From assembly GCF_024223415.1 (NCBI RefSeq), contig NZ_CP100500.1: a stretch of 64,000 nucleotides of DNA; one strand, 5' to 3'. Origin of the DNA: Escherichia coli. GTDB lineage: Bacteria > Pseudomonadota > Gammaproteobacteria > Enterobacterales > Enterobacteriaceae. Below are positions 16,205 through 53,608 of this stretch, piece after piece (the stretch's first letter is position 1; each line of letters opens with the position of its first letter). The notes under the pieces are model-generated. The model was not told where the DNA came from and ran no database searches. It saw only the letters and a program-made list of their open reading frames with translations. The translations under genes were made by a program, and so were the position numbers.

Positions 16205-16268
16205 CGCTTCAGGGCCCCAGTAAAGGGGCCCTGCTATCAATTTGTCATTTCAATTACGCGAAATTTAT

Positions 16269-17249
16269 ATGAACGCAATAATATCGCCTGATTATTACTA
16301 TGTTCTTACCGTTGCTGGTCAGTCTAATGCCATGGCGTATGGCGAAGGACTGCCATTACCGGACAGGGAAGATGCGCCTCATCCCAGAATTAAACAATTA
16401 GCGAGATTTGCGCATACGCATCCCGGAGGCCCGTCATGTCACTTTAACGACATTATTCCACTGACTCACTGCCCACACGATGTTCAGGATATGCAGGGTT
16501 ATCACCATCCTCTGGCAACGAATCATCAAACACAGTACGGCACCGTTGGCCAGGCACTGCATATTGCACGGAAATTACTGCCCTTTATTCCTGATAACGC
16601 AGGGGTTCTCATCGTTCCGTGTTGCCGTGGCGGATCGGCTTTTACCGCGGGCAGCGAAGGGACATATTCAGAACGGCACGGAGCCAGCCATGATGCTTGT
16701 CGTTGGGGAACGGATACTCCGCTATACCAGGATTTAGTCAGCAGAACGCGAGCCGCATTGGCAAAAAATCCGCAGAACAAATTCCTCGGCGTATGCTGGA
16801 TGCAAGGCGAATTTGACTTAATGACCAGTGACTACGCGTCACACCCTCAACACTTTAATCATATGGTTGAAGCCTTTCGTAGGGATCTAAAACAATACCA
16901 TTCTCAGCTTAATAATATTACTGATGCGCCCTGGTTTTGCGGCGATACCACCTGGTACTGGAAAGAAAATTTCCCTCATGCGTATGAAGCTATTTATGGC
17001 AATTACCAAAATAATGTTTTAGCCAATATTATTTTCGTCGACTTCCAGCAACAAGGTGAAAGAGGACTGACGAACGCGCCTGATGAAGACCCGGACGATT
17101 TAAGCACGGGATATTACGGTTCAGCGTACCGGTCACCGGAGAACTGGACGACGGCACTGAGAAGCAGCCATTTCAGCGCGGCAGCCCGTCGGGGGATTAT
17201 TTCTGACAGGTTTGTAGAAGCAATTTTGCAGTTTTGGCGCGAAAAGTGA
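16269..17249 (+). CDS. nanS: 9-O-acetyl-N-acetylneuraminate esterase
   Basis: ORF 16242..17249, probable start at MNAIISPDYYYVLTVAGQSNAMAYGEG, downstream of nanM. The exact start is uncertain. Confidence 0.85.
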   Translation: MNAIISPDYYYVLTVAGQSNAMAYGEGLPLPDREDAPHPRIKQLARFAHTHPGGPSCHFNDIIPLTHCPHDVQDMQGYHHPLATNHQTQYGTVGQALHIARKLLPFIPDNAGVLIVPCCRGGSAFTAGSEGTYSERHGASHDACRWGTDTPLYQDLVSRTRAALAKNPQNKFLGVCWMQGEFDLMTSDYASHPQHFNHMVEAFRRDLKQYHSQLNNITDAPWFCGDTTWYWKENFPHAYEAIYGNYQNNVLANIIFVDFQQQGERGLTNAPDEDPDDLSTGYYGSAYRSPENWTTALRSSHFSAAARRGIISDRFVEAILQFWREK

Positions 17250-32128: not shown

Positions 32129-34987
32129 TTAACCCTCCGCTCCGGTGATAACAGCAATTACCTGAATGTAGGGTTCTTTTTCAGTCGTCATGGTGTCCTC
32201 AATCCATTCGATATAGCTGTCAAAATTGTGTTCGATTTCGCGTTGTCTCTGCTCTTTACGGCTCTGCTTGACTGACAATTGCTGTTTGTTATCGGCAAAA
32301 TCCAGCTCAAGTTGGCTCAACTGCCGCCCACGCAAAACGTCCAGCTTTTGCAGATGCTCATTCAGTTGCTGGTTAATGTGCGTTTCAAACGCATTCCGAT
32401 CATGGATGAATACCTCCCGGGCATGAGCAATAGCCGCTTCAAGTAAATCCTGCTGGCGTTGGTGATTACGATCTTTACCGCCGCTGTTAGTCAGCTTGTT
32501 ACTCAACTGCGGATGACGTTGTAAAAACTCAGCGAATGGCTGACTGCCGATTAGCGATTCACGGTTAAAGCTCACCACTATCCACGGGTTCACCATCGGA
32601 TGTGATTTACGGTTCGGGAATAACCCGGAAAGAATGAAGTGATCTTCATCGGGTTCAAGCAGGTATGGCAGACGGATAACTGGTGCCTGATGACGACCAA
32701 AAGCCGAAGAGATTTTATCGTCCAGCCACTGCACTACCGGGTTGATTTGCCAGAGATACTGCACATCGGGCCAGGCATGTTGCTCACCGCGAGCGCGCGC
32801 AATCGCGTCGGTGATGACGGTTTTATCCTGACTTAAATAGAGCTGCCAGTTCTCCGGGGCAATTTCAGGCGGTAGCTGGTTGAAGCGGCGGCGTAACTCC
32901 TCCGGAGCCACCAGCGACAAGGTATTATCAGGCAAGGTTTCATACTGGATAGTTTGACCACTGGCTTTCAGGTAACCCAATGCTCTTTCGCAGTACGCCT
33001 GTTCGCTGGCAAACAAGCTGGTGTCTGCTTCGGTGACCATTGAGGCATCGCTGGAAACCGCACTGCATATTTCGCCAAACAGATCGTGTTCGGCGCTTTC
33101 CGAGACGTTGCTGTTCAGCAGTTGATCAAACAGGCTGGCACCATCATCCTGCATCATGAACTCTGCAACCTGCTCTTCTTCCTCTTCCTGGGTAAATTTG
33201 CCGGTAAACTCCGAACTGTCCCCAATGTTCTTCTGCGCCTGTTCGTCTTTGTTGATCAACACTTCCAGTACGCGCATATCGCCATTGATCTGTGGTTCGC
33301 TGGCCTCAGTAAGCAGATAGCGGATTTGAGGCTGATGTTTTTGCCCATAGCGGTCAATACGCCCGTTACGTTGCTGGAATACCATCAACGACCACGGAAT
33401 ATCAAAGTGAATCATTTTGTGGCTAAGGTGATGCAGGTTGATCCCTTCAGATGCCACATCCGAACAAACCAGAAGACGCAACGGCGACTGCGTTTTACCA
33501 AAGGCTTCTACGGTTTCCATCAATACCGTATCGCCCTGATCGCCGCGCAGCGTGGCGATCTGGTCATCTTTCAATTTCAGATCCGCTCGCAGTTGCTGTT
33601 CGAGGAACTCCAGCGTTTTAATACTTTCGGTGAAGATCACCAGGCGATCTTCCGTGTTATTGGCTTTCCAGGCGAGGTCTTTTCGGATGGTGTCGAGCAG
33701 CAACTGGTATTTGCTAAACTGGCTGGCATCAATATTATTCAGCGCCAACAGCAATGACTCCAGTTCGTTGATCTGGCTCTGGCTATTATGATCTTTACGG
33801 CTCTCAAGACGCTTCAGACGATTCGCCACGACGCTGGCACACGCCATCGGGCTGGAAAATAGCGCTTTTTCGAGGGTTATCTTGAACAGACGACCTTTGT
33901 TAGACTGGGCCTGTTCATCGTCATCATCACGGAACTGGCTCTCAACCAGACGACGGTATGCTTCTTCTTCGGCACCGGATGCCAGGCGAGTCAATTTGAC
34001 AATATTGCGCTCGGGAAACTCGCCGGACATCTGATCTTTCACGTCTTTTTTGAAGCGACGGACAACCAGATTTTTATCGGCAAAGTCGGCGTATTCATAC
34101 TCTTTCGGGTTGGCGATCGCCGTCGGGTCAAGCATGTTCATCAGGCTGGCAAAACTTTCAGCCTTACCATCATGCGGCGTTGCTGAAAGCATAATCAGCG
34201 TATCGCTACGCCCGGCGAGCAGTTTTGCCAGTTTACTGCGTAACGAACTGGTTCCACGTTCTGCGACGTTATGGGCCTCATCAATGACAATAATATCCCA
34301 CCAGGCATTTTCCAGATGGTGACGATATTCAATGTCTTGTTTCAGCGTATCGATGGAGATAATGGTCTTGTCAAAATAGTGGAACGGGTTGTGGTTGGTT
34401 GGGATGCGGTTACGCACCTTTTGTAAACCAGCAGAATCCAGGCGGGTCAATGGGATCGCAAAACGGCTCCAGAACTCCTTCTGGAATTGTGTCAGCATCG
34501 ATTTGACCGCCAGAACCAGAATACGTTTTCCGCGCCCACGACGGATCAGCTCCGAAACCAGAATACCCGCTTCCAGTGTTTTACCCAGACCGACAGCGTC
34601 GGCAATGAGTATCCGCTGACGCGGTTGTGCCAGCGCCATCCGCGTAGGATCGAGCTGAAACGGCATGGAATCCATCGCCGCCAGATGACCAAAATGGACT
34701 TTACTGTCTGTCGGTACGCGTTGGCGTAACTGACTTTCGATATACAACTGCGCCGCTTGATAATTGGCGGATTCATCTTCCACCAAATGCGTTTTTGCGG
34801 GATCCAGGATCTCTACTTTTTGTTCCAGTTTGGTCAGAAATAACCCTTCTTTACCGCGCACAAGCTCTGAAATACCATCGCAGGTCAGCAAATACCCACC
34901 ATCACCACTGTCATCCGCCCGGCGAATACGCCATTCGGCATCACGAATAACCACCCGCATACCAGGTGCATAATTTTGCTTATTCAT
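32129..34987 (-). CDS. 952-aa SNF2-family helicase (DrmD-like), first gene of operon
   Basis: SNF2 Walker A LIADAVGLGKTLEAG, DEAH box IIVIDEAHNV, motif III LMLSATPHDG, C-terminal helicase motif …FQQRNGRIDRYGQ. It ends 2 nt before the methyltransferase start. Confidence 0.85.
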   Translation of the reverse strand: MNKQNYAPGMRVVIRDAEWRIRRADDSGDGGYLLTCDGISELVRGKEGLFLTKLEQKVEILDPAKTHLVEDESANYQAAQLYIESQLRQRVPTDSKVHFGHLAAMDSMPFQLDPTRMALAQPRQRILIADAVGLGKTLEAGILVSELIRRGRGKRILVLAVKSMLTQFQKEFWSRFAIPLTRLDSAGLQKVRNRIPTNHNPFHYFDKTIISIDTLKQDIEYRHHLENAWWDIIVIDEAHNVAERGTSSLRSKLAKLLAGRSDTLIMLSATPHDGKAESFASLMNMLDPTAIANPKEYEYADFADKNLVVRRFKKDVKDQMSGEFPERNIVKLTRLASGAEEEAYRRLVESQFRDDDDEQAQSNKGRLFKITLEKALFSSPMACASVVANRLKRLESRKDHNSQSQINELESLLLALNNIDASQFSKYQLLLDTIRKDLAWKANNTEDRLVIFTESIKTLEFLEQQLRADLKLKDDQIATLRGDQGDTVLMETVEAFGKTQSPLRLLVCSDVASEGINLHHLSHKMIHFDIPWSLMVFQQRNGRIDRYGQKHQPQIRYLLTEASEPQINGDMRVLEVLINKDEQAQKNIGDSSEFTGKFTQEEEEEQVAEFMMQDDGASLFDQLLNSNVSESAEHDLFGEICSAVSSDASMVTEADTSLFASEQAYCERALGYLKASGQTIQYETLPDNTLSLVAPEELRRRFNQLPPEIAPENWQLYLSQDKTVITDAIARARGEQHAWPDVQYLWQINPVVQWLDDKISSAFGRHQAPVIRLPYLLEPDEDHFILSGLFPNRKSHPMVNPWIVVSFNRESLIGSQPFAEFLQRHPQLSNKLTNSGGKDRNHQRQQDLLEAAIAHAREVFIHDRNAFETHINQQLNEHLQKLDVLRGRQLSQLELDFADNKQQLSVKQSRKEQRQREIEHNFDSYIEWIEDTMTTEKEPYIQVIAVITGAEG

Positions 34988-35210: not shown

Positions 35211-38200
35211 TTATCCAGCGATAATATAACTCCTAAGGTCATTACCCGGGGCAACAGCTCGCGCTCGCGTGTTTGCCAGCCGTTCAACTTGCTGCGGTAC
35301 TCGCAGGGCAAAATCAAAGAAGGTATCTTCAATACAGCGCCAGTAGCTAAGCCCCATGTCGAGCAGGACATAATGCTGACTGCCATCGCTGAAGGTGACT
35401 GTCAGTTCTCGTCCATGCTCCGTACTCTGGTTATCCCCCGTTAACCAGCTAATTGCTCCCGGCCACGCAGGCCCCAGATATCCTTCTTCAAGTAAAGTGG
35501 TCACAACCTGCTGACGATCTTCCTCATTAAGCCACGCGTTATAGAGAGCGTCGTGTTGGCGAGAGTTGTAATCCAATTTTTTGACGCAAACAGTGAGGCT
35601 GGCGCGTTCCGCCATTCCCTGTTCAACCAGCTCGGTTAAGATTTCACCTAACAAACGCGCCGTGAATGGGCTATTAAGATAACGATCGCTGTACTCAACA
35701 TGCGTTATCTCTTTGTGGCGGGTAAATGCCTGCTTCCAGCCAGCGTGCTGTTGCGTGACTAACGACCAGAAACGCGAACCAAAACCTTCCAGCGGCCCGT
35801 CCAGTTGTTCACAGAGATTGATGCGCACCGCCCCGGTGGGTAAGGCGGGCAGTAAATCTTCTGCACTTAAGGTCTGACCCGAGAAGTTTTTTCCGGACGT
35901 TCCTTTAAGTGTCACTACTGGTGAAGACGCACTTTGTCCCCATAATTCACCAGGGGCAACGGTAGCGCTGTCGTCTGCGGCCCACTGTTGGCTTTGCCCT
36001 TCGCGAGTCACCTGCGCAAGCCAGCGCCCCTTTCCTTGCATGAGTTGCGCAGTGGCAATGGATTTCACTTGTAAGCGTCCTCCCGGCATCGCCGCCAACG
36101 CGGAAAGCTGATGTCTGGAGCTATCAGTTAAGTTTTCCAGCGGCGTGGCCACCAGCAACTCAACATTCCCACCGGAGGAGGCAAACTGGAGCAACTCTTT
36201 AAATAATGGCCATTGGGCAAAGTCCCACTGTTCCTGCGGCCCCGCAAGAACCAGCGAGCAGGAGTCATAAATCTCGCTGTTCAGGCATTGCGCAATACGT
36301 AAACTCAGAGGGTTAGTTTCAACCCGGCTACCATCGCCGAAGTACTGATATTCTGGCGCGAGGTTAAGTCGCTGCAACCGTACATTGGTAAGCAGGGTTA
36401 ATGCATGGTGACGATCTAATCTGTTGACATAATGCTGACTGTCGTAGCTGAGCAAGCAGTGGTGACAAAATTTATCGCAACTGCAATCGAGCAATTTTCT
36501 GGCGTAATTAAAGACATCAGCCCAATGGTCGATCAATTGCACTGCATAACCTGCACCACCCGCATTATTGTCGTATATGAAGATGGAATATCCGGTATAG
36601 CCATTGATATCGCGCGCTTGCTGCGTCGTCACGCCCAGCTCAGTATTTTCGATACCCAATTTATGCGCTAACCCTTCACGCAAAGCGACCGCAAGGGAAC
36701 GCGCGGCAACCTCATCACGGATCAACAGGCCATTATCATCATTGAGTTGCAGCTCAACCATATCTGTACGACTGCTATATCCCAACCACAGATCTTTATG
36801 CACATGACCGTGGCACAATTTATTGCTCCCCTGACGATCGTTACTGCCCCCTCGCAACAGGTAATGCGTATTTTCCCGCTCTGGGTTCTTTAGATTTTCA
36901 GGGGTACGCTGGGGTTGAGTTTGAGATTCTGCCCGACCACATGAGAGGCAAATTGCGTAGCCGTGCCCAAATTCCCCTTCACTGAAGTGGAACAATTCCC
37001 CACTATGGCTAAAACGGTAACGTCCTAGCCCAGCATCGGGTAAAGAAACCCACACCGAAGACGGTACAAGAACACGTGGATCTTTCCAAGGAAGTTGTGC
37101 AGGCATGGATACATCATTATGTGCCTGATAACGAATATCTGTCGCAAAACCAACAGGCTGTAAATAACGCTTCACATCAAGTTGCTGTATATCCGCTTTG
37201 CAGTGACTACATTCGACAGGACGGGTAGTACTGGTTGCCCCCGCACCACATTTACGGCAATGCCAGAACCACGGAATGTGATGATCGCCTGACAGCTCCT
37301 GCCCGCTGGCAAGTACCTTGCCAAGCATAATGCCCGAGGAACGATATACTTTTCCGCCCAATACCACATCTGCACCAGGCGCATACTCGCGTAATGCTGT
37401 AGGTAGATCACGGCTGGGCAATTTTTCAATACGACGAGAAAAGCTTTCTCCCCCTTCATTAGGGTCAGCCTGAGTAGCTTTTATTGCACGACGTTTTTCC
37501 AGCTCATCTGCCGTCAGATAATTGAAATTGACGACGCCAACCGGGAAACCATGCCCCGGCAGGAACGCTTCACTAATGAGTTTAGAAAACAGATATGCAC
37601 CGCGATAATCACGAAGCTGATAAGCGATGGCTTTACCTGCTGGCGTTTCTTCCCACGCGCTGTTATCCGCCTTCAACGCTTCGATATTTTCCAACAGTAT
37701 CGCAAGTTGGCTTCTCCAGCGGATATCAACCTGCTGCATCATTGCTTGTGTGCGGGTCAAGAGCTGGGTTGCCGTCAATGACTTCAGGACGGTTCCCTGA
37801 GTAAGGCGTTTAAGTTTATCCGCCAGCTCATCGGCCTGGTGATTTAACCAATGAAGAAAACGAAGACACTGGCTCTCATCACCTTCAAAGAACCATTTGC
37901 AACTCAGTTTTGTCGCATCAGGTACTTCAGCTCGTAAAAACAGACCTAAAACCAGGGCATTAACATGTCGTTGAACAATACTACTGCTCCCAAAACGAAC
38001 CCGTGGCGCACTGGCAGTAGTGTTGAACGCCCAGAGGGGGTCTTTGAATACCTCCATTCCATGCGCCGTGTTTTTACATAACGTAATGGCAGCAGATGCA
38101 CTCTCTCCACGACGCCCCGCGCGACCTGCACGCTGCAAATAATTTGCCGGCGCTGGAGGAACGTTGTTCATTGCCACCAAACTCATACCACCAATATCCA

Positions 38201-38693
38201 CCCCCATCTCCATGGTCGTGGAACAGTTCAGCACATTAACTTTGCCTGACTTAAATTGTTTTTCATTAAACTGGTTCTGCTCAGGCGTTCTCTGCGCAGA
38301 GTGTTCCTCCAGACGATACCAGCTATCTTTCAGGGCCAGTCGGTCGCTGCGAGTAGACCATAATCCTTCCTCGCGGGCATGTTGAATCAGCGCATTACTT
38401 TCCAGCCACTCCAGACGTTCTTCTCGGGCGATTTCTCCACCACCAGACAAACGCCAGTGACGTACAGGAAGCTCAGGCATTTCAATCAACACTGCTTTTT
38501 CAGGTGCAATTTCTTTGCTACCCGGCAAATACGGAGAGTATCCCAGCAACGTGACGTCTAACGCACGTCGAGTATAGGGGCAACGCCACACTTGCTTTGG
38601 ACTGTAAAATTCAGCCTGTTGTTTAATATCCAGCTGATAACCCGACTCAAACTGACGTAAGCAGGGTCGAATTGCATCCCAGACCTCAATCAT
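35211..38693 (-). CDS. C-terminal segment (1160 aa) of a DruE-like giant helicase; frame open upstream to the A7 tract at 38830-38836
   Basis: Helicase motif VI …ANYLQRAGRAGRRGE… near its N-terminus (matching the C-terminal lobe of the upstream ORF), then Cys clusters (CRKCGAG…CSHCKAD, CLSCGRAES, CSCDKFCHHC). Architecture parallels the 2113-aa protein. Confidence 0.7.
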   Translation of the reverse strand: MIEVWDAIRPCLRQFESGYQLDIKQQAEFYSPKQVWRCPYTRRALDVTLLGYSPYLPGSKEIAPEKAVLIEMPELPVRHWRLSGGGEIAREERLEWLESNALIQHAREEGLWSTRSDRLALKDSWYRLEEHSAQRTPEQNQFNEKQFKSGKVNVLNCSTTMEMGVDIGGMSLVAMNNVPPAPANYLQRAGRAGRRGESASAAITLCKNTAHGMEVFKDPLWAFNTTASAPRVRFGSSSIVQRHVNALVLGLFLRAEVPDATKLSCKWFFEGDESQCLRFLHWLNHQADELADKLKRLTQGTVLKSLTATQLLTRTQAMMQQVDIRWRSQLAILLENIEALKADNSAWEETPAGKAIAYQLRDYRGAYLFSKLISEAFLPGHGFPVGVVNFNYLTADELEKRRAIKATQADPNEGGESFSRRIEKLPSRDLPTALREYAPGADVVLGGKVYRSSGIMLGKVLASGQELSGDHHIPWFWHCRKCGAGATSTTRPVECSHCKADIQQLDVKRYLQPVGFATDIRYQAHNDVSMPAQLPWKDPRVLVPSSVWVSLPDAGLGRYRFSHSGELFHFSEGEFGHGYAICLSCGRAESQTQPQRTPENLKNPERENTHYLLRGGSNDRQGSNKLCHGHVHKDLWLGYSSRTDMVELQLNDDNGLLIRDEVAARSLAVALREGLAHKLGIENTELGVTTQQARDINGYTGYSIFIYDNNAGGAGYAVQLIDHWADVFNYARKLLDCSCDKFCHHCLLSYDSQHYVNRLDRHHALTLLTNVRLQRLNLAPEYQYFGDGSRVETNPLSLRIAQCLNSEIYDSCSLVLAGPQEQWDFAQWPLFKELLQFASSGGNVELLVATPLENLTDSSRHQLSALAAMPGGRLQVKSIATAQLMQGKGRWLAQVTREGQSQQWAADDSATVAPGELWGQSASSPVVTLKGTSGKNFSGQTLSAEDLLPALPTGAVRINLCEQLDGPLEGFGSRFWSLVTQQHAGWKQAFTRHKEITHVEYSDRYLNSPFTARLLGEILTELVEQGMAERASLTVCVKKLDYNSRQHDALYNAWLNEEDRQQVVTTLLEEGYLGPAWPGAISWLTGDNQSTEHGRELTVTFSDGSQHYVLLDMGLSYWRCIEDTFFDFALRVPQQVERLANTRARAVAPGNDLRSYIIAG

Positions 38694-38755: not shown

Positions 38756-41533
38756 TTAATAGCTTAATGACCCGGTTATAATGGCGATCGCGTATTTGTG
38801 GCCAAAGTTGATCACGTTTCTGCCCTTTGTTTTTTTATCTGGCCCCTGGAGCATTTTTACCGGGAAACGTGCCCCCATCCAGCGAGGGTATTGCTCGTTT
38901 TCGTAAAAAACGGCACTGTTTTCACGGATAAAGAAATCAAGAGTAATCTTCAATAAATTACGCCATTCCGCTAATTGCTTATCGGGATCGGGTAATAATG
39001 TCTTCCAGTCCTGCGGGCAGGTTGTAACTTTATCAATAAATGGATAGTGAATGGCTACCAGACCCAGACTTTCGAGGGTCCAGGCATTTTTAGGGCGGCG
39101 ACCAAACTCGCTGTATAAACAAAAATCTGCAAACTGTTGTTTAGTAAGATCAAGCCCAGACAATTCTTTAAAACTGCCTCTCATTCTATCGGCAAGGTCC
39201 ACACTGCCAACCAGCTGTTCAGACAGCGTTTGCCATGACATGGTTTTCTTCTGCTGATTGCCAGAGTTAACCTGAAGTATTTGCATCGCTTCAGCATGCT
39301 CCGGGCTTAAGGAACTCACCATCGGCTCAATAATTTTAAGTGACTGAATGTCCGCCGGGCTAAGCTCCTCATTCGCAGCCATCGCTTTTTTCAGCGCGTC
39401 GATGGAATTTTTTAAAGGGAGGACAGAAAACTGGCTAATAACTTTCTCTAACAGTGCACAGTGTGCCGGGCTGAGTTTTGCTGAAGGCTCTGTAATATTT
39501 GCCAGCTCCTGGTAACAAAGAGCTCGCAACGTCGCTTTATCGGCATCCTGCTGTAAGCGGGCTGAAATGCGAGCGGTACCCTGACGCGAATCCGTAAAGG
39601 TGAGCAAGCGTCGACCATTAAACGGTCCTAACTGCTCTTCTCTTGTTTGCGGTAATGGAGAAAACTCCAGCAGAGTAGGAATAATTTCATTTAAAAAAAA
39701 GGGCGCGCCGAGCCGAAGCGGACGGAATAAAGGATTATTTTTCCGTTGAGTGTCACCACAGCAAACACAAGCAAAGGAGTTATTGCGCCCCTCACCTCGA
39801 GATTCCGGTCTTAACAGGTTTATTTCATAGTGCTTTTGCGCTTCACTATCAATTTTCCCCGCCGTCGTTTCTTCCAGTGAAATGATATATTTTTCACCAT
39901 CGCTCGCAATCAGACGATCAAATTGAGAGTTATTGTCTAATTCGTCGTTGTCTTCATCTTCAGAATAAACATCTACATCAAGAGCAAACTCATCCACTTC
40001 GGCAGCGGCTGGTTGCGCTACCAACCAGTTCGTTCCATCACCGCGCATCTCCTCTTTGGCAGACAAATAAGCTGAACCACACCCGGAGCAACGTAAAACT
40101 TCAAATACCGGCGCTCCACAGTCACAATATTGGCGCTGCTCAAACCATACCTGACCAAATGGCCAGTCACTCTGATTTAATTCATGTGCTTTATGTGAGC
40201 ATTGTTTGTTTGAACATGCCCATAGACCCGCCAGTGTTCTGATAAACCCATGCATACGTAATGGCGTAAAAGCCAGTTCACCTTCTCGCGATCTTGCCAT
40301 TAGATCGAGGAGTTGCAGTAGCTCACGGTGATTAATATCTGGCCAGGTTCTTCTGGCAACATTGAGCAACTCACTCAAACGTACTGCCTGCCGTCCGGGA
40401 TGAGTTAACGCCTGACGCAATTGCTGGGCCACACGGTAATGACAAAGCTGTTGGTAAAGATCCTGAGGGCTCAGGGATTTAAGAGAAGTTAAAGATGTGG
40501 GGTATTCATGACGAATCAGCGACTCCGATACCCGCGGTATTTGTCGATAACCGCGAACCACTTTGACATCACGTTCTGTAACGCCCGCGAGATCAGCGAC
40601 AAATTTAGCAAGCTCCTTATTACCTTCAGGAGAGTCTTCACCAATAGTGGCAGAGGTCGCGATAATCTGCACAGGTTTATCTGTGCCGGGTCCAACATTG
40701 AAAGCCTGCATAACACGACGTAAAAGCAGCGCTAACTCAGCAGCCTGAGAACCAATATAACTATGGGCTTCATCCAGGACGATATACTTTAACATCCCCT
40801 GAGACTTTTCGATGATTGGGGCATCTTTACGACGAATCAGCATATATTCCAGCATGGTGGTATTCGTCACCATGATGGAAGGTGGTGCTTCATAAATGGC
40901 TTCCCGACTCAAAGCTTGTTCAGGTACTTTCAACTGATCTTCCTGAACTTCGTATTTGGTATGCCGGGTTTCGCCATTATATAGCGCGAAGCGTATTTTC
41001 CCCTTAAATCCGCGCGTCCATTCGCGAAGCCGCTCCTGTTGGCTGTTAATTAATGCATTTAACGGATACAAGAAAATAGCTTGTGTCCCTGTTAGTGACT
41101 GGCGGGTCGATTTTTGCTGACGAATAAGATCTTCCAGAACCGGTACCATAAAGCATTCTGTTTTCCCGGATCCCGTACCGCTGCTCACTAACAAGGATTT
41201 TTTGTCTTCCAGAATCGTTCGCCACGCAGTAAGTTGATGACGAAATGGCACTGGCGCTTTGCTCAATGCATCAACCAGCGGGCTGGAGATCAGCTTGTCC
41301 CGCAAATCCTCCATTGTTTCATCCGCAGGCATCCAGCCGAATGTACTTTCGAATACCGGGTCTGCAAGCAGTGACCCCTCCTGACCGGGAGGCTGAAAAT
41401 ATTGTGATTCCAGATAATGAGTCAACGACTTGCTCCGCAATGCCAACTGACTTACCACCGACCTCACCGCACGCTGATGAAGCTGATTTAGAAGTGGCGC
41501 ATAATGCAGTTGCTGAACGTCCATCAATGACAT
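38756..41533 (-). CDS. N-terminal segment (925 aa) of a DruE-like giant helicase; ends 2 codons... stop shortly after an A7 tract
   Basis: Motif I VSSGTGSGKTECFMVPVL, motif II VLDEAHSYIG, internal Cys clusters as in the 2113-aa paralog. It is in a different frame from the downstream 1160-aa ORF by exactly one nucleotide. Confidence 0.7.
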   Translation of the reverse strand: MSLMDVQQLHYAPLLNQLHQRAVRSVVSQLALRSKSLTHYLESQYFQPPGQEGSLLADPVFESTFGWMPADETMEDLRDKLISSPLVDALSKAPVPFRHQLTAWRTILEDKKSLLVSSGTGSGKTECFMVPVLEDLIRQQKSTRQSLTGTQAIFLYPLNALINSQQERLREWTRGFKGKIRFALYNGETRHTKYEVQEDQLKVPEQALSREAIYEAPPSIMVTNTTMLEYMLIRRKDAPIIEKSQGMLKYIVLDEAHSYIGSQAAELALLLRRVMQAFNVGPGTDKPVQIIATSATIGEDSPEGNKELAKFVADLAGVTERDVKVVRGYRQIPRVSESLIRHEYPTSLTSLKSLSPQDLYQQLCHYRVAQQLRQALTHPGRQAVRLSELLNVARRTWPDINHRELLQLLDLMARSREGELAFTPLRMHGFIRTLAGLWACSNKQCSHKAHELNQSDWPFGQVWFEQRQYCDCGAPVFEVLRCSGCGSAYLSAKEEMRGDGTNWLVAQPAAAEVDEFALDVDVYSEDEDNDELDNNSQFDRLIASDGEKYIISLEETTAGKIDSEAQKHYEINLLRPESRGEGRNNSFACVCCGDTQRKNNPLFRPLRLGAPFFLNEIIPTLLEFSPLPQTREEQLGPFNGRRLLTFTDSRQGTARISARLQQDADKATLRALCYQELANITEPSAKLSPAHCALLEKVISQFSVLPLKNSIDALKKAMAANEELSPADIQSLKIIEPMVSSLSPEHAEAMQILQVNSGNQQKKTMSWQTLSEQLVGSVDLADRMRGSFKELSGLDLTKQQFADFCLYSEFGRRPKNAWTLESLGLVAIHYPFIDKVTTCPQDWKTLLPDPDKQLAEWRNLLKITLDFFIRENSAVFYENEQYPRWMGARFPVKMLQGPDKKTKGRNVINFGHKYAIAIITGSLSY

Positions 41534-44500
41534 ACTCCTGCTTGTTCAAAATAATATTGATAGATTACACCTAATTGCTGTGGGGCTTGCTGATAGTGAA
41601 ATTCAAAAAGCGCAGACAGTTGATGTATCAGGTTATTATCTTTTTGGGTTAACAGCGCTGCGACTAACATCAAATTAAAACGTTTTTCAAGCCGTGAGTG
41701 ATATTTATCTTCAATCCAAAGCTTATTAAAAACAGATTTTAACTCTGGAGTAATAGCACTAGACCAAAGTTCTTTAGGGAAGATACTGATACGCCCAAAG
41801 CTGTCGGGGTTCCTTAATAGCATCTGTTTAGCTTCATTAAACTGCTCACGACTAACAGTTGGCAATACATCACAACCGGTTGGTAGGCTCTCACTATATG
41901 TAAGTAACATATTCGCAATCGGAGCCAGCCGACGATCGATATGTGCACGATGGTTCATAAAAGCAATAAAGGGTTGCAATATATGTAATGCTAATGTTTT
42001 ATCGTTAATCTGTTTCTCCAGATAAGTCCAACATTTTTGGAAAACATCTTTCCAGATTGAAACGGGAATCCATCCCCATGAAAAGGGTAATTCTTCCTGT
42101 ATATCATAAATCGTATCGCTATCACCAGAAAGACATGATGATATTAACAATTGAACAACCACGCGGTAATTACTCGAAATACCTCTGAACAAGTCCAGAT
42201 CCAGCAAGGATAAGCCATTATTCATTTTGTATTTCTTAATATACTCTGTTAATAAACAGCAATAATTTTGCAATGGGTTGTTATCTATTTCAAAAATTAG
42301 CTCATTAAAATTTTTTTTGCGCTGTTCTGGGTCTGCTTCGCATAGAGCATTTAGTAATAAATCATTTGTCTGCAATACAGGTAGCATCCATTTAATTACT
42401 GGTGCAATGCGAGCTGTACCATCAAGTTTTCCCACAATTAACCATGGACTATCCTGAACATTCAGAGCTGAAAGATCATAAGCAAACTCATCTTTTTTTA
42501 ACAATGATATGTGTAAGCCAGGATTCTTAAGAGAAATAGCATCAACAACCAGTTCGTCTATTCTATTTGCAGGAAAAACAACAGAATTTTTTATATCAAC
42601 CAGTAACCCTTGATCGTGTTCAATAAAACTACCATCGTAGCGTTTAATATTGAGTGTTGCTTTATCCTTTCCAAATCTGTCAGAGTAAAAATCAACACAT
42701 AATGTACTATTGCTGTTCCATGCACATGCCAGCATAGCATTTAGCAAATTATAGTTCTCATAAAGTGAAATTTGTTGTAATTTGTCATTGCGTCCTGATA
42801 AAAGAGGAAGGTCGGCATGTAAATAGCGGAATTTTTCAGCTACTGGATTTTCATCCAATAACTCGATATTAAGATATCCTCTTCCAGCACATGATATGGT
42901 TAATAACTCAGCATCTATTCCATGCAAATGTGCTATAGATGCCACACCATCAAAATGAACAGAACCATCATTAGTTACAAATCGGCCACCGCTAACCGGC
43001 TTAGGTAATAATAGTTTAAGATTAGAACCATCTTTCCAGGAGACCCGTAAATCAACGGTATTTTCCAGCATCAGCGATGAATTATAATAAATAGCACACT
43101 CGTTTTGTGAATAATCGGACTTAAGTGTTACTTTTTCATTGTTTAAATATTTATCAATTCTAGTATCCGTTATACCAGAAAGCATAATAATGCCTTGCTG
43201 AGCACTCTCAGGTATAATATTAATATCGAAGTCTGCTGGTAAAACTACAACTTTACCGCTAAATAAAACCTCATCATTAACTATTCGCCGGACTTCTATC
43301 TGTCCTTTTGGCATTTCTGATGCGACAGAATACCAGGCATTGTTACCTGAACGAATGGAACGCCAAAAAAGTTCTTTCTCCGGTACAATGCCATATTGCA
43401 GATCCTTTTTCCAACCGATCTTCGGCCAGGCTCGATGGACAGGATAATCCGATTTAACCAGTTCAACTTCTGTCGATTTAATATAATATTCAATCGCAGA
43501 ATCATAAAGTTGCTGGGTGCGAATTGTACAAACTGCACCATCATGTAAAACAACGCTAAATACTCCACTTATTTTAGTTAAGCTGCGTTCACTGTTTTTC
43601 AGCAACCTTGGGATATCAAACTCACCTTCTCCACTAATATCTAAATGGCTATTTTTCGGTAGCGAAATAAACAGAGCATTTAGCCTGGAACTCACAGACC
43701 CCATACCAACAAGTTTTAGCTGCGATTCACTCTCATTCATCGCTTCAAAAACCCAGGGAAGTTCTTCAGTAAGTTCATAACCGCCTTTTGGAATTGTGTG
43801 ACCTAACAGAATTGGACCTTCATGAAGCGACAATGAGATTTCGGCCATTGCATCTGCACCAGAGAGTTTTTGCATCGCAATAGGTAATAACTCGACCCGC
43901 CAATCTTGCTGCTCATAACGGCTTAGCATTGCCAACCTTGCCCCGCCATTTTTCCATTTTCCTGAAATGATGAGTCGGGTCTGCTCCGGCTGAATATGGC
44001 ATTCAAACAAAGAGGTTAACTGTTCTGTACGCATTGTGGCCGGGAATCGGAACCGGGCATCGCAATACCAACTGTCATCAACATCGACCCAGATTCTTTC
44101 AACCTGAAGACTACTTGCACTGCGTATTTCAGAAGATTGAGATAGTAATCGCCTTACAATCTCTGCAGCATTCGCTTCGGGGAGAACGAGTGGAAGTTTA
44201 AGATGCCAGTCTGGAGAGAGCTTACGTAATGCAGAAACGGGATCACTGCTTTGAGGAGGATGCTCACTAAGTAATCGGCAGAGAGTCTCGCAGAATTCAC
44301 CGGCTATTTCATAGACCAGTTCGTTTTGCATTGTGACAGGAATCGTATCGCCTAATTCTTGTGCAATTTTAGCGGCAGGATATTGAGATGATTGCCCACG
44401 AAGCGCCTGATATATCCTTCTGAAATAGGTAATCAAATAACCGCTCTCATTTTCAATCATGCGGATAGGCAAACCACCTTCACAAGCCAGTGTATGCAGA

Positions 44501-44883
44501 TAACCCGAAGCTTGTCCCAGGTTTCTTATCTTTCTTTTCCAGTAGCGAATGCCATCATTAACCAGCTTCTGTCGATGAACATACGGAACTTTCCAGTTAA
44601 TAGAATCTAAAATTGTGTCCCATTTAGGGTGTCCGACCGTATGAGTCCGGCGGATAAACTCTGCGGCATATATGCTAAATAGAACATCGCTATAGGAAAT
44701 GAATATCGTTCTTGGATAACTACGGGGGGCATATGTACGCAGTAGTTCTGCCAAACTTTCGTACTCTGTATCAGTACAACGGTAAGCATATAACGCCCGT
44801 CCATCAGCTCCGGATAATGAACGGCGACTAAAAAACATGTTAAGCCATTGCAAAAGTGGGTTAACTGGAGTTTTCACAAGCAA
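41524..44883 (-). CDS. 1119-aa protein of unknown function (DruH-like partner of the giant helicase)
   Basis: Large ORF with no motif recognisable by eye. Its stop overlaps the start of the 925-aa helicase ORF by ~10 nt, implying co-translation. Position and size fit the partner gene of Druantia type III. Confidence 0.5.
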   Translation of the reverse strand: MLVKTPVNPLLQWLNMFFSRRSLSGADGRALYAYRCTDTEYESLAELLRTYAPRSYPRTIFISYSDVLFSIYAAEFIRRTHTVGHPKWDTILDSINWKVPYVHRQKLVNDGIRYWKRKIRNLGQASGYLHTLACEGGLPIRMIENESGYLITYFRRIYQALRGQSSQYPAAKIAQELGDTIPVTMQNELVYEIAGEFCETLCRLLSEHPPQSSDPVSALRKLSPDWHLKLPLVLPEANAAEIVRRLLSQSSEIRSASSLQVERIWVDVDDSWYCDARFRFPATMRTEQLTSLFECHIQPEQTRLIISGKWKNGGARLAMLSRYEQQDWRVELLPIAMQKLSGADAMAEISLSLHEGPILLGHTIPKGGYELTEELPWVFEAMNESESQLKLVGMGSVSSRLNALFISLPKNSHLDISGEGEFDIPRLLKNSERSLTKISGVFSVVLHDGAVCTIRTQQLYDSAIEYYIKSTEVELVKSDYPVHRAWPKIGWKKDLQYGIVPEKELFWRSIRSGNNAWYSVASEMPKGQIEVRRIVNDEVLFSGKVVVLPADFDINIIPESAQQGIIMLSGITDTRIDKYLNNEKVTLKSDYSQNECAIYYNSSLMLENTVDLRVSWKDGSNLKLLLPKPVSGGRFVTNDGSVHFDGVASIAHLHGIDAELLTISCAGRGYLNIELLDENPVAEKFRYLHADLPLLSGRNDKLQQISLYENYNLLNAMLACAWNSNSTLCVDFYSDRFGKDKATLNIKRYDGSFIEHDQGLLVDIKNSVVFPANRIDELVVDAISLKNPGLHISLLKKDEFAYDLSALNVQDSPWLIVGKLDGTARIAPVIKWMLPVLQTNDLLLNALCEADPEQRKKNFNELIFEIDNNPLQNYCCLLTEYIKKYKMNNGLSLLDLDLFRGISSNYRVVVQLLISSCLSGDSDTIYDIQEELPFSWGWIPVSIWKDVFQKCWTYLEKQINDKTLALHILQPFIAFMNHRAHIDRRLAPIANMLLTYSESLPTGCDVLPTVSREQFNEAKQMLLRNPDSFGRISIFPKELWSSAITPELKSVFNKLWIEDKYHSRLEKRFNLMLVAALLTQKDNNLIHQLSALFEFHYQQAPQQLGVIYQYYFEQAGVCH

Positions 44884-48753: not shown

Positions 48754-49032
48754 CTTTGTAGACAGGAGACAGTCACAATGAATAAAACAATAAATTGATG
48801 TCGCACGCGCCGATGGGCATGGCGGGTAATGTAACTTTTGTACACAACGGCAAGGCTTATGTTACTGGCGGTGTTAACCAGAACATCTTCAATGGCTATT
48901 TTGAAGATCTCAACGATGCTGGAGAATATTTAGCAGCTATAGACAAGATCAATGCCTATTATTTCGACAAAAAAGCAGAAGATTATTTCTTCAATAAGTT
49001 TTTGTTGTCTTTTGATCCCTCAACACAGCAAT
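48754..49032 (+). pseudogene. diverged nanM remnant (first ~37 bp of nanM fused to an internal ~240-bp nanM segment), preceded by a nanC-promoter-like GGTATA repeat at 48687-48700
   Basis: 48754-48790 matches 15079-15115 (gtagacaggagacagtcacaatgaataaaacaataa). 48791-49032 matches 15460-15700 at roughly 90 percent identity by eye. Same orientation as the intact nanM. Confidence 0.8.
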
Positions 49033-49107
49033 GGATCTTCACTTGCAGGCTTGAACAGCAGAAAATTTGCGAGCATGATCGCAATTATTTCACTGCCAGG
49101 GATATCA

Positions 49108-49980
49108 ATGGCTTCCAGTAAATCGCTACAGCAGGCAATTGCCAACATAAAAATCTGGCACAAGGGTGAACAGCGCGCGCCGCATAAGCCATTGTTATTG
49201 CTATACGTATTAGCGGGATACCTGAATGGACATCCACGCCTTTTCGATTATGGATCGGAAATCTACGAACCTCTGCACAGTTTACTGGAACGTTTTGGGC
49301 CACAGCGTTCACAGTACCGACCTGATATGCCGTTCTGGCGATTACAAGGCGACGGATTCTGGCAATTACACAATGCCGAGCTTTGCTCAACAGCAGGGAG
49401 CAGCCGACAACCGCCAGTGAAGGAACTGAACGAATACCACGTTGCAGGCGGTTTCGATGAACAGCACTACGCCCTGGTAACCGGCAATAAAAAACTCATC
49501 AATACTCTGGCGCAACAGATACTCGAAGCGCACTTCACCGAGAGTATTCAGGAAGAAATTGCTGACGAGCTGGGTTTTGATCTCCAGCAAATCCGTAAAC
49601 AGCGCGACCCGTTATTTCGCAAAAATGTATTACGCGCTTATAACTACCAGTGCGCGATATGTGGCTTTAATATGCGCCACGACGACACCACCGTCGCGCT
49701 GGAAGCGGCGCATATAAAATGGAAACAGCACGGCGGTCCTTGTGAAATTCCTAATGGCCTGGCGCTTTGCGCAATTCACCATAAAGCCTTTGATAAAGGA
49801 TCGATTGGCCTGGATGAAAATATGCGGGTACTGGTCTCGGATGCGGTAAACGGCGGAGGGATCGTTGAGAGATTATTCTGGGATTTTGACGGGAAAACTA
49901 TTGCGTTGCCGCAGGTGCGTAAAAATTACCCTTATGAGGGGTTTGTGGAGTGGCATCGGGAAGAGGTTTTTAGGGGGTGA
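49108..49980 (+). CDS. HNH endonuclease with unidentified N-terminal domain (candidate modification-dependent restriction enzyme)
   Basis: C-terminal HNH motif YQCAICGFNMRHDDTTVALEAAHIKWKQHGGPCEIPNGLALCAIHHKAFD. The start is taken at ATG 49108 (MASSKSLQQAIANIKIW) with AGGGA RBS, because the ORF-track start at 48952 lies in the nanM remnant. Confidence 0.6.
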   Translation: MASSKSLQQAIANIKIWHKGEQRAPHKPLLLLYVLAGYLNGHPRLFDYGSEIYEPLHSLLERFGPQRSQYRPDMPFWRLQGDGFWQLHNAELCSTAGSSRQPPVKELNEYHVAGGFDEQHYALVTGNKKLINTLAQQILEAHFTESIQEEIADELGFDLQQIRKQRDPLFRKNVLRAYNYQCAICGFNMRHDDTTVALEAAHIKWKQHGGPCEIPNGLALCAIHHKAFDKGSIGLDENMRVLVSDAVNGGGIVERLFWDFDGKTIALPQVRKNYPYEGFVEWHREEVFRG

Positions 49981-50024
49981 GGTTGATAACTATCGCAGTA
50001 TGTTCAATATTGCTGACATAATCA

Positions 50025-50204
50025 GTGCAGGATCTTGCCGCTAGTTTACAACTCGCCTTCGATAGCGGCGCAAAACGTGTTCTGTTGCCGATATCCTCGG
50101 CTATGGATATTCCAACAGTTCCGGCAGAGTTGTTTACCAAGTTTCAGGTAAGTTTTTACTCAGAACCGGTTGATGTGGTTTATAAGGCGCTGGATGTGAA
50201 TTAA
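50025..50204 (+). pseudogene. possible 3-prime remnant of a Lon-like protease gene (BrxL-like C-terminus)
   Basis: Short frame encoding …GAKRVLLPISSAMDIPTVPAELFTKFQVSFYSEPVDVVYKALDVN*, which resembles the extreme C-terminus of Lon-family proteases from memory. No upstream coding sequence remains. Confidence 0.3.
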
Positions 50205-50537
50205 CACATTCCTCAGCTTATTTACAAAAGGATTATTCCCATTTGATATAATATCAGTGCCAATTTACTTTTTTCAATGGAATATATCTCGGCTAAATAA
50301 CAATAAAACTTATCGCTAATTGATTAAATAAACAATTTTCTAATTCATTTCACCACCTTTGATATAGAAATTGATGGTGTTGTCGCTGCCATTGCTTATG
50401 GTGATGATAAAATCCACGTTTCTGGATCGTTGCGTAGAAAATCATCACTACCTTGATATTTTGATGCGATATGATCATACCGTTCCGTAGTACCAATTTC
50501 AATTTCAGGCTAAACCCCAACATTAAAAAAATTAGAG

Positions 50538-50579
50538 TTATTCACTGATTATATTATCAATAATATAATCAGTGAATAA
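50538..50579. repeat. 42-bp near-perfect AT-rich palindrome (20-bp arms, 2-nt centre)
   Basis: ttattcactgattatattat-ca-ataatataatcagtgaataa; all 20 arm positions pair. It lies ~25 bp downstream of the stop of the 682-aa minus-strand ORF. Confidence 0.8.
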
Positions 50580-50602
50580 CATGGACTATATAATAAATTG
50601 CT

Positions 50603-52651
50603 CTAATCATTTCCCTTACGAATATATGGGCCAAAAGCCCAAGAATCATAATAAGGGTGATGGACTAGTTTTTCATTAAATCGAACACTATAAGTTAATT
50701 TTTTTATATTTTTACGTACAGCATTAATACTGGGCAAAGAGGAAAGATAATCTATAAACTTATCGATAGTGATTTCCCCTTCGCAACACTCAAACCCATC
50801 AATGATATTTTTCGCCATTTTTCCATTTTCATTTGTTTGATATATCACTCCAGGTATTCGTTGAAAAAAACTAGATAATGCATATTTGTCCGCTACATAT
50901 GTATCATCCACATGATATTTCCCACCGAGCATAGTTGTAGTAACAATAAGCTTATACACACCTTTGGGTTGCCATGTTGATGGTAGTTCGAATTCTTTAA
51001 TGATCACATCAAGATGATTAAGATAATGTTCAGAAATTCGATTTATTTGTTGAAAATAAGAACGCATAAATTTATTATTATGATCATGTATTAATGAGCT
51101 ATCTCCAACGATGTTACACATTTGCTGATAGTATTTACCATAATATATTGGTTGACCATTTGATTTTAGTTCTGTAAAAATCAAACAATCATCCAGGAGA
51201 ATCACGCAATCGCACTGATAATTAGCATGAGCATCAATTGGAGAAGCTTTAATCCCCGCATCACGAACTTGTTTTATAAATTGTTGCTCATGAAATCGCC
51301 CTTTACTTGCTTGAGAAATTTTTTTGGAACCAAATAATGACATTAGAGAGCGAGTCACTGAGCTATTTGCTATTAATGCAGGCATTAAGCATAAACCGTC
51401 CATACAGGGAATAAATGGGCAATCATTAAGATCATGTGATTTTGAATTGAAGGTAAAATAATCTATCAGTTTTTTTGCTGCATCTGCTGCAATCCCCTTA
51501 CGTTGAAAGAATGATAACCAACTCTCACGGCTTTTTATGATCAGCCAGCGATCCAACTGTAGGGGTATAGGTTTTGTCGATGAAAATCTTTTGCTCATTT
51601 CTTCTTTAGATAACTCGACTAAACATTGATAAGCGTGCACCCAATTAAATAATGATATATTCCCATATTCTTCATGAAGGTCATCAGGAGACATATTTTC
51701 CAACTCGCTTAGATGAAATGAGCTAAAAACGCCATCAGAATTTAAGTAAGATGGCATATGATCCTTTACCCAACTATTTAGATGAAAATGTTTGTTACTA
51801 AATTCATGAACTTCGCTATATAGATGTGACGCTCTCATCATTAGTCTATTTCTTGCAATCTCATAATCTCGGTATAAACAAAAACTATCAACCTCAAGAG
51901 AGTAAATGTTATTATCCAATTTTGTAAATACTGCACTACTTAGTCTGAAAAAGTCTCTTACTCTGCTTAATGAGTCAAAAACATTCCACTCATTAAGGTA
52001 CCCTCCCATTGAAAGCAAGGTTTGTTTATTCACACAAGAAGTTAGTTTCAATGGCTCATGAGTCCGTAAATAAGAAAATATTCTTCCGGTGTAATTGGCT
52101 ACCTCATCAAATGCCCTATCGATAACTCGAAAATATTCGATATCAGGTTCAGCATGAATATTAATATTTTCAGAAACGATAAATAATGGAAAAATCCTCT
52201 TCATTTTTTTAGGATCATTGACCACAACCAAGGATGATAATGATGATAAAAACATCTCACAAAACATGATGAGATTAAGTATTAATGCATGTGATTTTTT
52301 TGTATTTTTACGCCAAATACCAGCACATTTTGTAGCCGCAAAGAAAGAATTATTTATATCATGCATAATTTTACATTGACTCTCGAACTCAGAAATTAGT
52401 TCAATGTTATCAGGAAATGAGTTTACTAGCTCATTAATACATTTTTTGAATGTATTGTTATACTCAACTTCAGTCTGAACTGAAAATCTATTATAATAGA
52501 TGGAAGATATTCTCAGCACATCCAAGGCGATATCTATACTAATATCATCTCTTTTTATGTACTCACAAAAAAAAGAACAAAACTGTTTCGGGTCGTTAGC
52601 AAGATTACTAATTCTAGTGGTATCATAAACTTTTTCCATTTTTCCATACAT
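50603..52651 (-). CDS. 682-aa hypothetical protein, very AT-rich, possible C-terminal PD-(D/E)xK-like patch
   Basis: Long uninterrupted ORF in the most AT-rich stretch of the window, adjacent to leuX. No recognisable P-loop. C-terminal segment …YQCDCVILLDDCLIFTELK… has the hydrophobic-D…E-x-K spacing of PD-(D/E)xK nucleases (weak, by eye). Confidence 0.6.
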   Translation of the reverse strand: MYGKMEKVYDTTRISNLANDPKQFCSFFCEYIKRDDISIDIALDVLRISSIYYNRFSVQTEVEYNNTFKKCINELVNSFPDNIELISEFESQCKIMHDINNSFFAATKCAGIWRKNTKKSHALILNLIMFCEMFLSSLSSLVVVNDPKKMKRIFPLFIVSENINIHAEPDIEYFRVIDRAFDEVANYTGRIFSYLRTHEPLKLTSCVNKQTLLSMGGYLNEWNVFDSLSRVRDFFRLSSAVFTKLDNNIYSLEVDSFCLYRDYEIARNRLMMRASHLYSEVHEFSNKHFHLNSWVKDHMPSYLNSDGVFSSFHLSELENMSPDDLHEEYGNISLFNWVHAYQCLVELSKEEMSKRFSSTKPIPLQLDRWLIIKSRESWLSFFQRKGIAADAAKKLIDYFTFNSKSHDLNDCPFIPCMDGLCLMPALIANSSVTRSLMSLFGSKKISQASKGRFHEQQFIKQVRDAGIKASPIDAHANYQCDCVILLDDCLIFTELKSNGQPIYYGKYYQQMCNIVGDSSLIHDHNNKFMRSYFQQINRISEHYLNHLDVIIKEFELPSTWQPKGVYKLIVTTTMLGGKYHVDDTYVADKYALSSFFQRIPGVIYQTNENGKMAKNIIDGFECCEGEITIDKFIDYLSSLPSINAVRKNIKKLTYSVRFNEKLVHHPYYDSWAFGPYIRKGND

Positions 52652-53328
52652 CCTATTGTCTAAATTACTATAAAACTAGCCACTTAACTAATAATTATAA
52701 ATTTCATCTTTTACACCTTGCATTTTTATAACCAATGAAATCTACGACAAGCAACTGATGGATAATCCGATATTGGTCGCATTTAATGGCATGGTAGCAA
52801 AGTTTTCATCACATACCTCCTTTGCACCAGAATAAACGCCAGAGATCTGAAATTGCGAGTACACTACAGAAATTGTACTGCCGGTCCCATCAGCATAAAA
52901 CCATAGTTACACAGGTAATCATCATTATTCGCCAAGATAATAAATATTATTCGGTAGAATAGCGTTCTCAGGTGGTCAGTATAATTGTCTTCAACAAGAT
53001 GTCTGCGCATCTCGTCTGCTAGCCCTACATAACTGCTCTCGACCGAAACTATTTATTGAATGTTCACCAAGGTGGGCGTGGAGACAAAATGACGTCTTTT
53101 GATATTAGCTACCTGAGCCACATGGTCAAAACGTTCAAGTAGCATAGCGAAACCACCCTGCCCACGTAATGTGGACGATGCAGCTTCCAGCCAGAGCAAA
53201 CTTGGGACCATCGACTACAAAATGAAGAATACTGAACTGCTTTTCTGGCAGGCCTATATACTGCACGGATATGGGTGATTTCAGACACAAAAAAAGCCGC
53301 CCTTGAGCGACTCGATTTGCATACGGTG

Positions 53329-53413
53329 TGGTGCCGAAGGCCGGACTCGAACCGGCACGTATTTCTACGGTTGATTTTGAATCAACTGCGTCTACCGATT
53401 TCGCCACTTCGGC
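53329..53413 (-). tRNA. leuX: tRNA-Leu (anticodon CAA)
   Basis: Reverse complement reads GCCGAAGTGGCGAAATCGGTAGACGCAGTTGATTCAAAATCAACCGTAGAAATACGTGCCGGTTCGAGTCCGGCCTTCGGCACCA, with anticodon loop TTCAAAA and a T-run downstream. Confidence 0.95.
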
Positions 53414-53608
53414 ACTGAAGAGGTATGCGGAAAACGTTGTGGATTATACCTGTCGCACGCCACCATGCAAGCGCCAGCTTGCTCGCACCTCGCTAAGTGC
53501 TGAAATTTTCAGCATTGCATACAGCGATGTGTAACCTTTGTCACACTCCAGGCACCCCGCCCTGCCATGCTCTACACTTCCCAGACAACACCAGAGAAGG
53601 ACCAAAAA

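Follow-up and report, generated by a model that had tools for sequence, protein, structure and literature searches.

Stand-alone nucleases that defend bacteria against phages often pair a catalytic domain with additional regions, and two such proteins serve as points of comparison for the gene described here. ZwsA is a stand-alone 82-kDa protein of Pseudomonas aeruginosa whose N-terminus is long and helical and whose C-terminal domain is small; its modules are VHS, DUF647, NERD and S4, its NERD site is formed by E535, D567, E580 and K582, and it cleaves the RNA of PP7 and MS2, which are genomes of single-stranded RNA phages (bioRxiv 10.64898/2026.04.06.716636). Upx (SeUpx, PDB 9wuf) is a protein of 1272 residues with N-terminal, middle and C-terminal domains, in which a second, atypical nuclease resides in the N-terminal domain and the canonical core occupies the extreme C-terminus at residues 1121-1272 (PMC13099982). 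Its trigger is terminase or gp16 (PMC13099982; 10.64898/2026.04.30.721860). In the present study we analysed a stretch of 64,000 nucleotides from the Escherichia coli contig NZ_CP100500.1 (assembly GCF_024223415.1), hereafter called the window, and a protein-coding gene at positions 50603..52651 on its minus strand, next to the tRNA gene leuX. By analogy, the predicted product of this gene is proposed to share a sensor-nuclease logic with the single-protein defences Upx, Shedu and ZwsA.

The gene is an intact open reading frame (ORF) of 682 codons when counted from its first ATG, and its coding status is supported by the program-made ORF list, by RefSeq annotation, by the alignment of homologues and by a cluster of identical proteins with 3303 members. 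In near-identical genomes, the Prokaryotic Genome Annotation Pipeline places the start four codons downstream, at M5 (nt 52639), which yields a product of 678 residues. This product is WP_097345962.1, named ‘hypothetical protein’ by RefSeq in the annotation of a 99.9% identical genome. Because every homologue aligns beginning at the same methionine, M5 is likely to be the true start.

The C-terminal half of the protein adopts, in sequence and in the predicted model, a PD-(D/E)xK/NERD-like endonuclease fold of the Mg-dependent type with a complete, intact E-D-ExK set of the restriction-enzyme type, and is predicted to be a nuclease. Conservation was evaluated with an alignment of 100 sequences whose mean identity to the query is approximately 20%. 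The same alignment proved decisive for structure prediction, as AlphaFold reached a predicted local distance difference test score (pLDDT) of 56 with an alignment of 7 sequences, but a pLDDT of 92.7 and a predicted template modelling score of 0.91 with the 100-sequence alignment. The nuclease core spans residues 447-600 (50852..51313; all features of the protein are encoded on the minus strand) and has an alpha-beta-beta-beta-alpha-beta fold. The catalytic residues are E455 (51287-51289), D481 (51209-51211), E494 (51170-51172) and K496 (51164-51166), which supply the glutamate of helix 1, the acidic residue of beta2 and the (D/E)xK element of beta3 that, together with the core fold, define the PD-(D/E)xK superfamily. 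P412, G451, D481, E494 and K496 are invariant among the 100 sequences, and D407, D410, E455, Q535, R538, D588 and G625 are conserved in at least 90% of them; Q535 and R538 are located on the helix that follows the catalytic set. An initial annotation of the window had noted a weak PD-(D/E)xK-like patch, DCVILLDDCLIFTELK, near the C-terminus. The patch corresponds to residues 481-496 (D481...E494-L-K496) and is part of a genuine nuclease motif, although it lies approximately 70% of the way along the protein.

Three further segments surround this core. An all-helical domain with one beta-hairpin at residues 241-253 makes up the N-terminus (residues 5-400; 51452..52639), and a small alpha/beta subdomain with the conserved G625 follows the core (residues 601-672; 50636..50851), as judged from the AlphaFold model and conservation. 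Between the helical domain and the core is the most conserved segment of the protein (residues 401-446; 51314..51451). It carries the motif S-x-D-L-x-D-C-P-[F/L]-I (residues 405-414; nt 51410-51439), with a beta-hairpin and helices between this motif and the nuclease core. The motif is the most conserved element of the family, which was unexpected. Mean pairwise identity is 0.15-0.17 in the N-terminal domain versus 0.28-0.31 for residues 401-600, with the highest regional value (0.31) in residues 401-446. Searches with the N-terminal helical domain returned only generic helical-bundle similarity, with no detectable relatives outside the family.

The initial annotation regarded the ORF as an orphan, which proved to be incorrect. 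A phmmer search of 1.84 billion cluster representatives gave 226 matches at E<=1e-3 (114 at E<=1e-10), most of which are 600-700 residues long and align end to end; the family as a whole ranges from 600 to 740 residues. A word-indexed search recovered Enterobacterales only, including homologues from Salmonella (75% identity) and from Izhakiella, Xenorhabdus, Pectobacterium and Pantoea (41-56% identity). When the model was compared with AFDB50 by Foldseek, 361 matches at E<=1e-3 were obtained with whole-protein template modelling (TM) scores of 0.65-0.97, in Bacillus, Paenibacillus, Listeria, Streptococcus, Enterococcus, Legionella, Agrobacterium, Brevundimonas and one planctomycete. When the PDB was searched in the same way, no structure matched the whole protein significantly. 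Members are found in Firmicutes, Proteobacteria and Planctomycetes, with Pseudomonas helleri as a further source, and UniProt labels the AFDB50 homologues by machine as ‘NERD domain-containing protein’.

This label is only partly borne out by profile searches. The query itself has no match to NERD (PF08378), and a Pfam scan of 100 family members finds NERD in a subset of them (8 at E<=1e-3 and 23 at E<=0.1), along with weak matches to the Card1 endonuclease (7 members) and Mrr (4 members). A family profile searched against PDB sequences aligns with the Can2 nuclease domain on the GxxFE...D...ExK pattern (E=0.046), and the CARF_PDDEXK models of PADLOC match the nuclease region of two family members. 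Searches of Pfam, NCBIfam, PHROGs and PDB sequences with the query returned nothing usable, and PADLOC gave only a marginal match to the candidate model PDC-M29B (E=0.001). Outside the nuclease core, the family is covered by no NCBIfam (June 2026), Pfam, PHROG or PADLOC model, and a search of the available literature library for the protein accessions found no paper citing them. No curated family or paper was found that covers this widespread family.

Sequence and modelled structure place the ORF product in the PD-(D/E)xK superfamily with, at best, a divergent NERD-type domain. It shares with NERD proteins the E...D...ExK arrangement on a GxxxE helix, whereas two features set the family apart, namely the approximately 440 residues that precede the core and the S-x-D-L-x-D-C-P-F-I motif. 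Can2 and Card1 can be ruled out, since the query has no CARF match and its modelled N-terminus is all-helical rather than Rossmann-like; there is also no association with type III CRISPR loci. Likewise, Shedu (SduA) is excluded by the lack of a DUF4263 or PADLOC Shedu match and by its different accessory domains, and the END nucleases, which join a type IIS-like nuclease to an inactive EndoIII (PMC12191111), have another architecture.

The two proteins introduced at the outset can also be compared with the ORF product. Upx proteins have approximately 1200-1270 residues, in contrast to the 682 of the ORF product, whose core at residues 447-600 is followed by an extra subdomain. The family profile does not find 9wuf among PDB sequences, PADLOC 2.0 (assumed to include an Upx model) reports no Upx match for the query and 10 members, aligned identity is 9%, and Upx is not among the Foldseek matches. 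The absence of a sequence match, the twofold difference in size and the other domain order together rule out membership of Upx. ZwsA, compared here by its published description, has a compatible module order and motif spacing and acts alone.

To evaluate genomic context, we examined approximately 23 informative neighbourhoods, with E. coli counted once. No conserved neighbour was found among them, and in particular no methyltransferase or immunity partner, which agrees with the view of the initial annotation that the gene is a single-gene unit. The five contexts of close enterobacterial homologues are between enterobactin and sugar genes, beside a P4-type integrase and Vsr, between housekeeping genes, beside an Hcp-Ntox44 islet, and beside CcdA/TacA antitoxin genes. 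Among more distant members, one is adjacent to a type I restriction-modification (R-M) system, a Cap4-type nuclease and an SMC-like gene, and another is inside a cluster of Gabija, NERD-UvrD and PLD-helicase genes; a third adjoins an integrase that borders a prophage-like element, and a fourth is located by a small HNH islet.

A profile of the Firmicute subgroup, searched against representative genomes, added 17 loci, a sample of contexts that is taxonomically biased. The large neighbours of 10 of these loci were submitted to PADLOC, which reported defence or candidate-defence genes at six loci and none at four. The first of the six carries PDC-M22A/B (Lamassu-like) directly upstream of the family member, the second a BREX set (PglX, PglZ, BrxA and a helicase) with MzaC, and the third PDC-M09A with LmuA-like genes. 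At the fourth, AAA ATPases of the PDC-M68B/LmuB type are present on both sides, and the remaining two have a type I R-M system and a type IIG R-M system with PDC-S49, respectively. Overall, 9 of the approximately 23 contexts are adjacent to defence or candidate-defence genes, a proportion that is suggestive in that we judge it, without a matched control, to be well above the expectation for ordinary genes. Close enterobacterial homologues contribute none of these defence-adjacent contexts (0 of 5). Some homologues are also found near islets of type VI or type VII secretion effectors (Hcp, Hcp-Ntox44, VasX and WXG100/SMI1), which probably reflects a shared variable hotspot and not a functional link. 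We reject a role as a type VI or type VII secretion effector for lack of a secretion-associated domain and of a conserved adjacent immunity gene.

Within E. coli, the ORF has a patchy distribution, occurring in 334 of 5426 complete genomes with every copy at least 99.4% identical. The arrangement seen in the window from zorE, a gene of the neighbouring Zorya II system, to leuX is present in only 96 genomes. Strains of O157:H7 carry zorE and a gene for an HNH endonuclease that binds phosphorothioated DNA (PT-endonuclease), which adjoins the ORF in the window, and in these strains similarity ends just short of the ORF. Conversely, avian pathogenic E. coli (APEC) O1 and strain 24AR0180 have nanS'-HNH'-PT-endonuclease-ORF and lack Zorya, Druantia and ARMADA; the complete order of the APEC O1 type is nanM-nanS'-HNH'-PT-endonuclease-ORF-leuX, with nothing in between. 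The ORF is thus gained and lost independently of the large systems. The PT-endonuclease is common across E. coli, K-12 derivatives among them, and is found both together with the ORF and apart from it; we reject a functional pair between the two genes since each is found without the other.

These arrangements also bear on the history of the locus. The islet formed by the PT-endonuclease and the ORF looks like the older occupant of leuX, with a block of approximately 30 kb comprising ARMADA II, Druantia III and Zorya II inserted later, and a duplicated nanM fragment would be the scar of this insertion. Recent acquisition of the ORF, as the initial annotation would have it, is therefore doubtful, given that the islet exists without the large defence block in genomes such as APEC O1. 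In strain 24AR0180 (NZ_CP195356.1, 16744-22100), a P4-like satellite has inserted between leuX and the ORF with an integrase, a psu remnant and a SMEK / ABC-three-component / DUF2326 cargo, and turnover at this hotspot is therefore ongoing. The APEC O1 copy (NC_008563.1, 14001-16048) aligns over 2048 of 2049 nt, yet its RefSeq coding sequence has only 1764 nt, which suggests an indel of 1 nt that would remove the N-terminus. A tblastn search of 50,697 phage records found no homologue, and we reject a phage origin on this basis. Plasmid-borne homologues are restricted to 5 plasmids (Bacillus, Priestia and Exiguobacterium). The gene is transferred horizontally as one cassette, which enters variable regions as well as defence islands.

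On balance, we lean towards the view that the gene encodes a self-contained anti-phage (or anti-mobile-element) sensor-nuclease composed of one polypeptide. This putative function is the most economical reading of the active site, the variable domain, the absence of a partner and the mobility into hotspots. The helical N-terminal domain would serve as a sensor or regulatory module that holds the nuclease inactive, or restricted in its substrates, until an infection cue is encountered, be it a protein of the phage or nucleic acid of an unusual kind. Once activated, the nuclease would cleave phage nucleic acid, and possibly that of the host as well, and infection would be stopped. In this reading, we infer what triggers the protein, whether DNA or RNA is cut and whether protection is direct or abortive. 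With somewhat greater reserve, we suggest that the E. coli ORF may represent a widespread, unrecognised family of single-protein immune nucleases, in which a helical sensor and the S-x-D-L-x-D-C-P-F-I element would gate a NERD-like site.

Several results favour a sensor-nuclease. The catalytic residues are retained across 100 sequences despite the low identity among them, and sequence divergence is more rapid in the N-terminal half than in the catalytic one, as is expected of a sensor. In addition, the presence of the ORF in E. coli is independent of Zorya and Druantia. Other results weigh against it. All five of the closest homologues outside E. coli, which are enterobacterial, reside in non-defence neighbourhoods, and the overall adjacency of 39% was obtained from few contexts and lacks a matched control. 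This value is also below the cut-off of approximately 65% reportedly used in published defence-island screens. Moreover, the query is matched by none of the models of PADLOC, NCBIfam and PHROG beyond the marginal PDC-M29B. Of the initial proposal of a possible novel single-gene defence protein, the single gene, the nuclease motif and the location in a defence island have stood, orphan status has not, and defence is plausible.

A non-immune role is the alternative that survives best, although we consider it unlikely. The gene could be a mobile repair or recombination nuclease, a factor by which integrative elements are maintained or excluded, or a selfish gene accumulating in the variable hotspots that defence genes also occupy. 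Many of the contexts are merely variable regions with core genes, type VI or type VII secretion islets, antitoxin genes or integrases, and Holliday-junction resolvases are among the fold matches. NERD domains, too, were reportedly first noted in plasmid and DNA-processing contexts when they were originally described. However, the gene is not tied to one type of element, as is evident from the phage and plasmid searches described above, and family members from unrelated phyla are repeatedly found beside bona fide defence systems. Defence effectors are also typically built in this way, as a free-standing active nuclease that lacks an immunity gene and carries a large, variable accessory domain.

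Less probable still is a modification-dependent restriction enzyme resembling type IV systems, in which the helical N-terminus would recognise modification or damage in the bases or backbone of incoming DNA and the PD-(D/E)xK domain would cut. This would again be a defence, but one that restricts modified DNA constitutively and is not triggered by infection. The PT-endonuclease next to the ORF might seem to fit such a role, but it is present without the ORF in O157:H7 and K-12 lineages, and homologues in other genera have no PT-endonuclease as a neighbour. Searches of Pfam and PADLOC and by fold revealed neither a recognised reader of modified bases (SRA, EVE/YTH, SBD, winged-helix or inactive EndoIII) nor an NTPase motor, and NCBIfam likewise gave no type IV features. 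Finally, an RNA-targeting NERD nuclease like ZwsA of P. aeruginosa, which would cut structured phage RNA, whether ssRNA genomes or phage transcripts, and spare host mRNA, is the most doubtful of the three, since despite the equal module order and D-to-ExK spacing (13 residues), and an E-to-D spacing of 31 in a Pseudomonas family member versus 32 in ZwsA, no retrieved protein carries the ZwsA numbering E535, D567, E580 and K582, neither the query nor the family has an S4, VHS or DUF647 match in Pfam, and the nearest structural relatives are mostly DNA nucleases.

If the gene is indeed a sensor-nuclease, approximately 6% of complete E. coli genomes, among them APEC, extraintestinal pathogenic E. 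coli (ExPEC), O145 Shiga toxin-producing E. coli (STEC) and others, carry an extra one-gene immune nuclease. Current defence-annotation tools would then miss this gene, which bears on the prediction of phage host range and on phage therapy. Strains like that of the window carry an additional, putative nuclease next to the systems examined in O-island 172 (OI-172), which is relevant for experiments on the leuX island. The family would also offer a compact one-gene system of approximately 2 kb for studying the control that a novel helical domain exerts on a restriction-type active site and, if it is related to ZwsA, would connect a Pseudomonas defence against RNA phages with a bacterial family of broad distribution. 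The gene, at a locus that is being actively studied, is nevertheless one of many such candidates for a stand-alone sensor-nuclease defence, and no new principle is indicated.

The ORF has a GC content of 0.327 (0.254 at third codon positions, GC3) versus 0.474 for the whole window, only 0.4% of equal-length windows have a lower GC content, and the minima of a 1-kb GC profile lie at 50-53 kb. The foreign origin of the gene is clearly supported, and its earlier description as a very AT-rich, most foreign segment holds, as do those of an intact 682-residue ORF and of adjacency to leuX. The latter, a tRNA-Leu(CAA) gene at 53329..53413 on the minus strand (ARAGORN; Rfam tRNA, 59.4 bits), is an integration hotspot that bounds the island and lies 677 bp upstream of the ORF on the same strand; a terminator scan locates its own terminator at 53294-53313. 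The intergenic region between leuX and the ORF (52652..53328, minus strand; 677 bp, GC 0.41) accompanies the ORF in E. coli, as 330 genomes hold at least 80% of positions 50000-53500. Promoter-like sites in this region are no commoner than in shuffled sequence, an Rfam scan of the ORF flanks matched no family apart from the leuX tRNA, and the flanks contain no convincing small ORFs. On the other side of the gene, 23 nt past the stop codon, a hairpin with a perfect 20-bp stem followed by a T-run (50537..50580, minus strand), recognized in the sequence and by a terminator scan, is likely to be the transcription terminator of the ORF.

To the right of leuX are core chromosomal genes of E. coli (ahr, idnK, idnD and onwards), and to its left is the island, with nanM and a remnant of nanS as its boundary. 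The systems of the island are named after a study of the equivalent OI-172, which was confined to z5894-z5902 and does not mention the ORF (bioRxiv 10.1101/2025.09.22.677730). Beginning at the intact nanM and truncated nanS (approximately 15100-16900), the order is ARMADA II (ORFs 18743-20857, 20854-27195, 27195-32126 and 32129-34987), Druantia III (DruE at approximately 35.2-41.5 kb and DruH at 41524-44883), Zorya II (zorA2/B2/E at approximately 45.1-48.57 kb), a partial copy of nanM (48792-49040), the PT-endonuclease (49108-49980, plus strand), a 180-nt gene fragment (50025-50204, plus strand) and the ORF. The partial nanM copy lies between zorE and the PT-endonuclease, approximately 32 kb from the intact gene. 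The ORF therefore resides next to defence systems, as had been noted at the outset.

Two features of these neighbouring systems distinguish the window strain from its relatives. DruE is a single coding sequence of 6.3 kb in the near-identical NZ_CP048605.1, but is divided here into two ORFs, 35211-38693 and 38756-41533, on the minus strand. Exactly one gap is present in the 34-kb alignment of the window with that contig, so the division is probably due to a frameshift, and Druantia III may be inactivated by it in the window strain. The other feature is a block at approximately 27800-28900, inside the ORF for the ArmB methyltransferase (27195-32126), where the sequence diverges sharply from the reference strain and is partly unalignable. 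Identity within it is 81.6% at 28051-28463, versus 98-99% in the flanks, and the block looks like a swapped target-recognition region of the ARMADA II methyltransferase.

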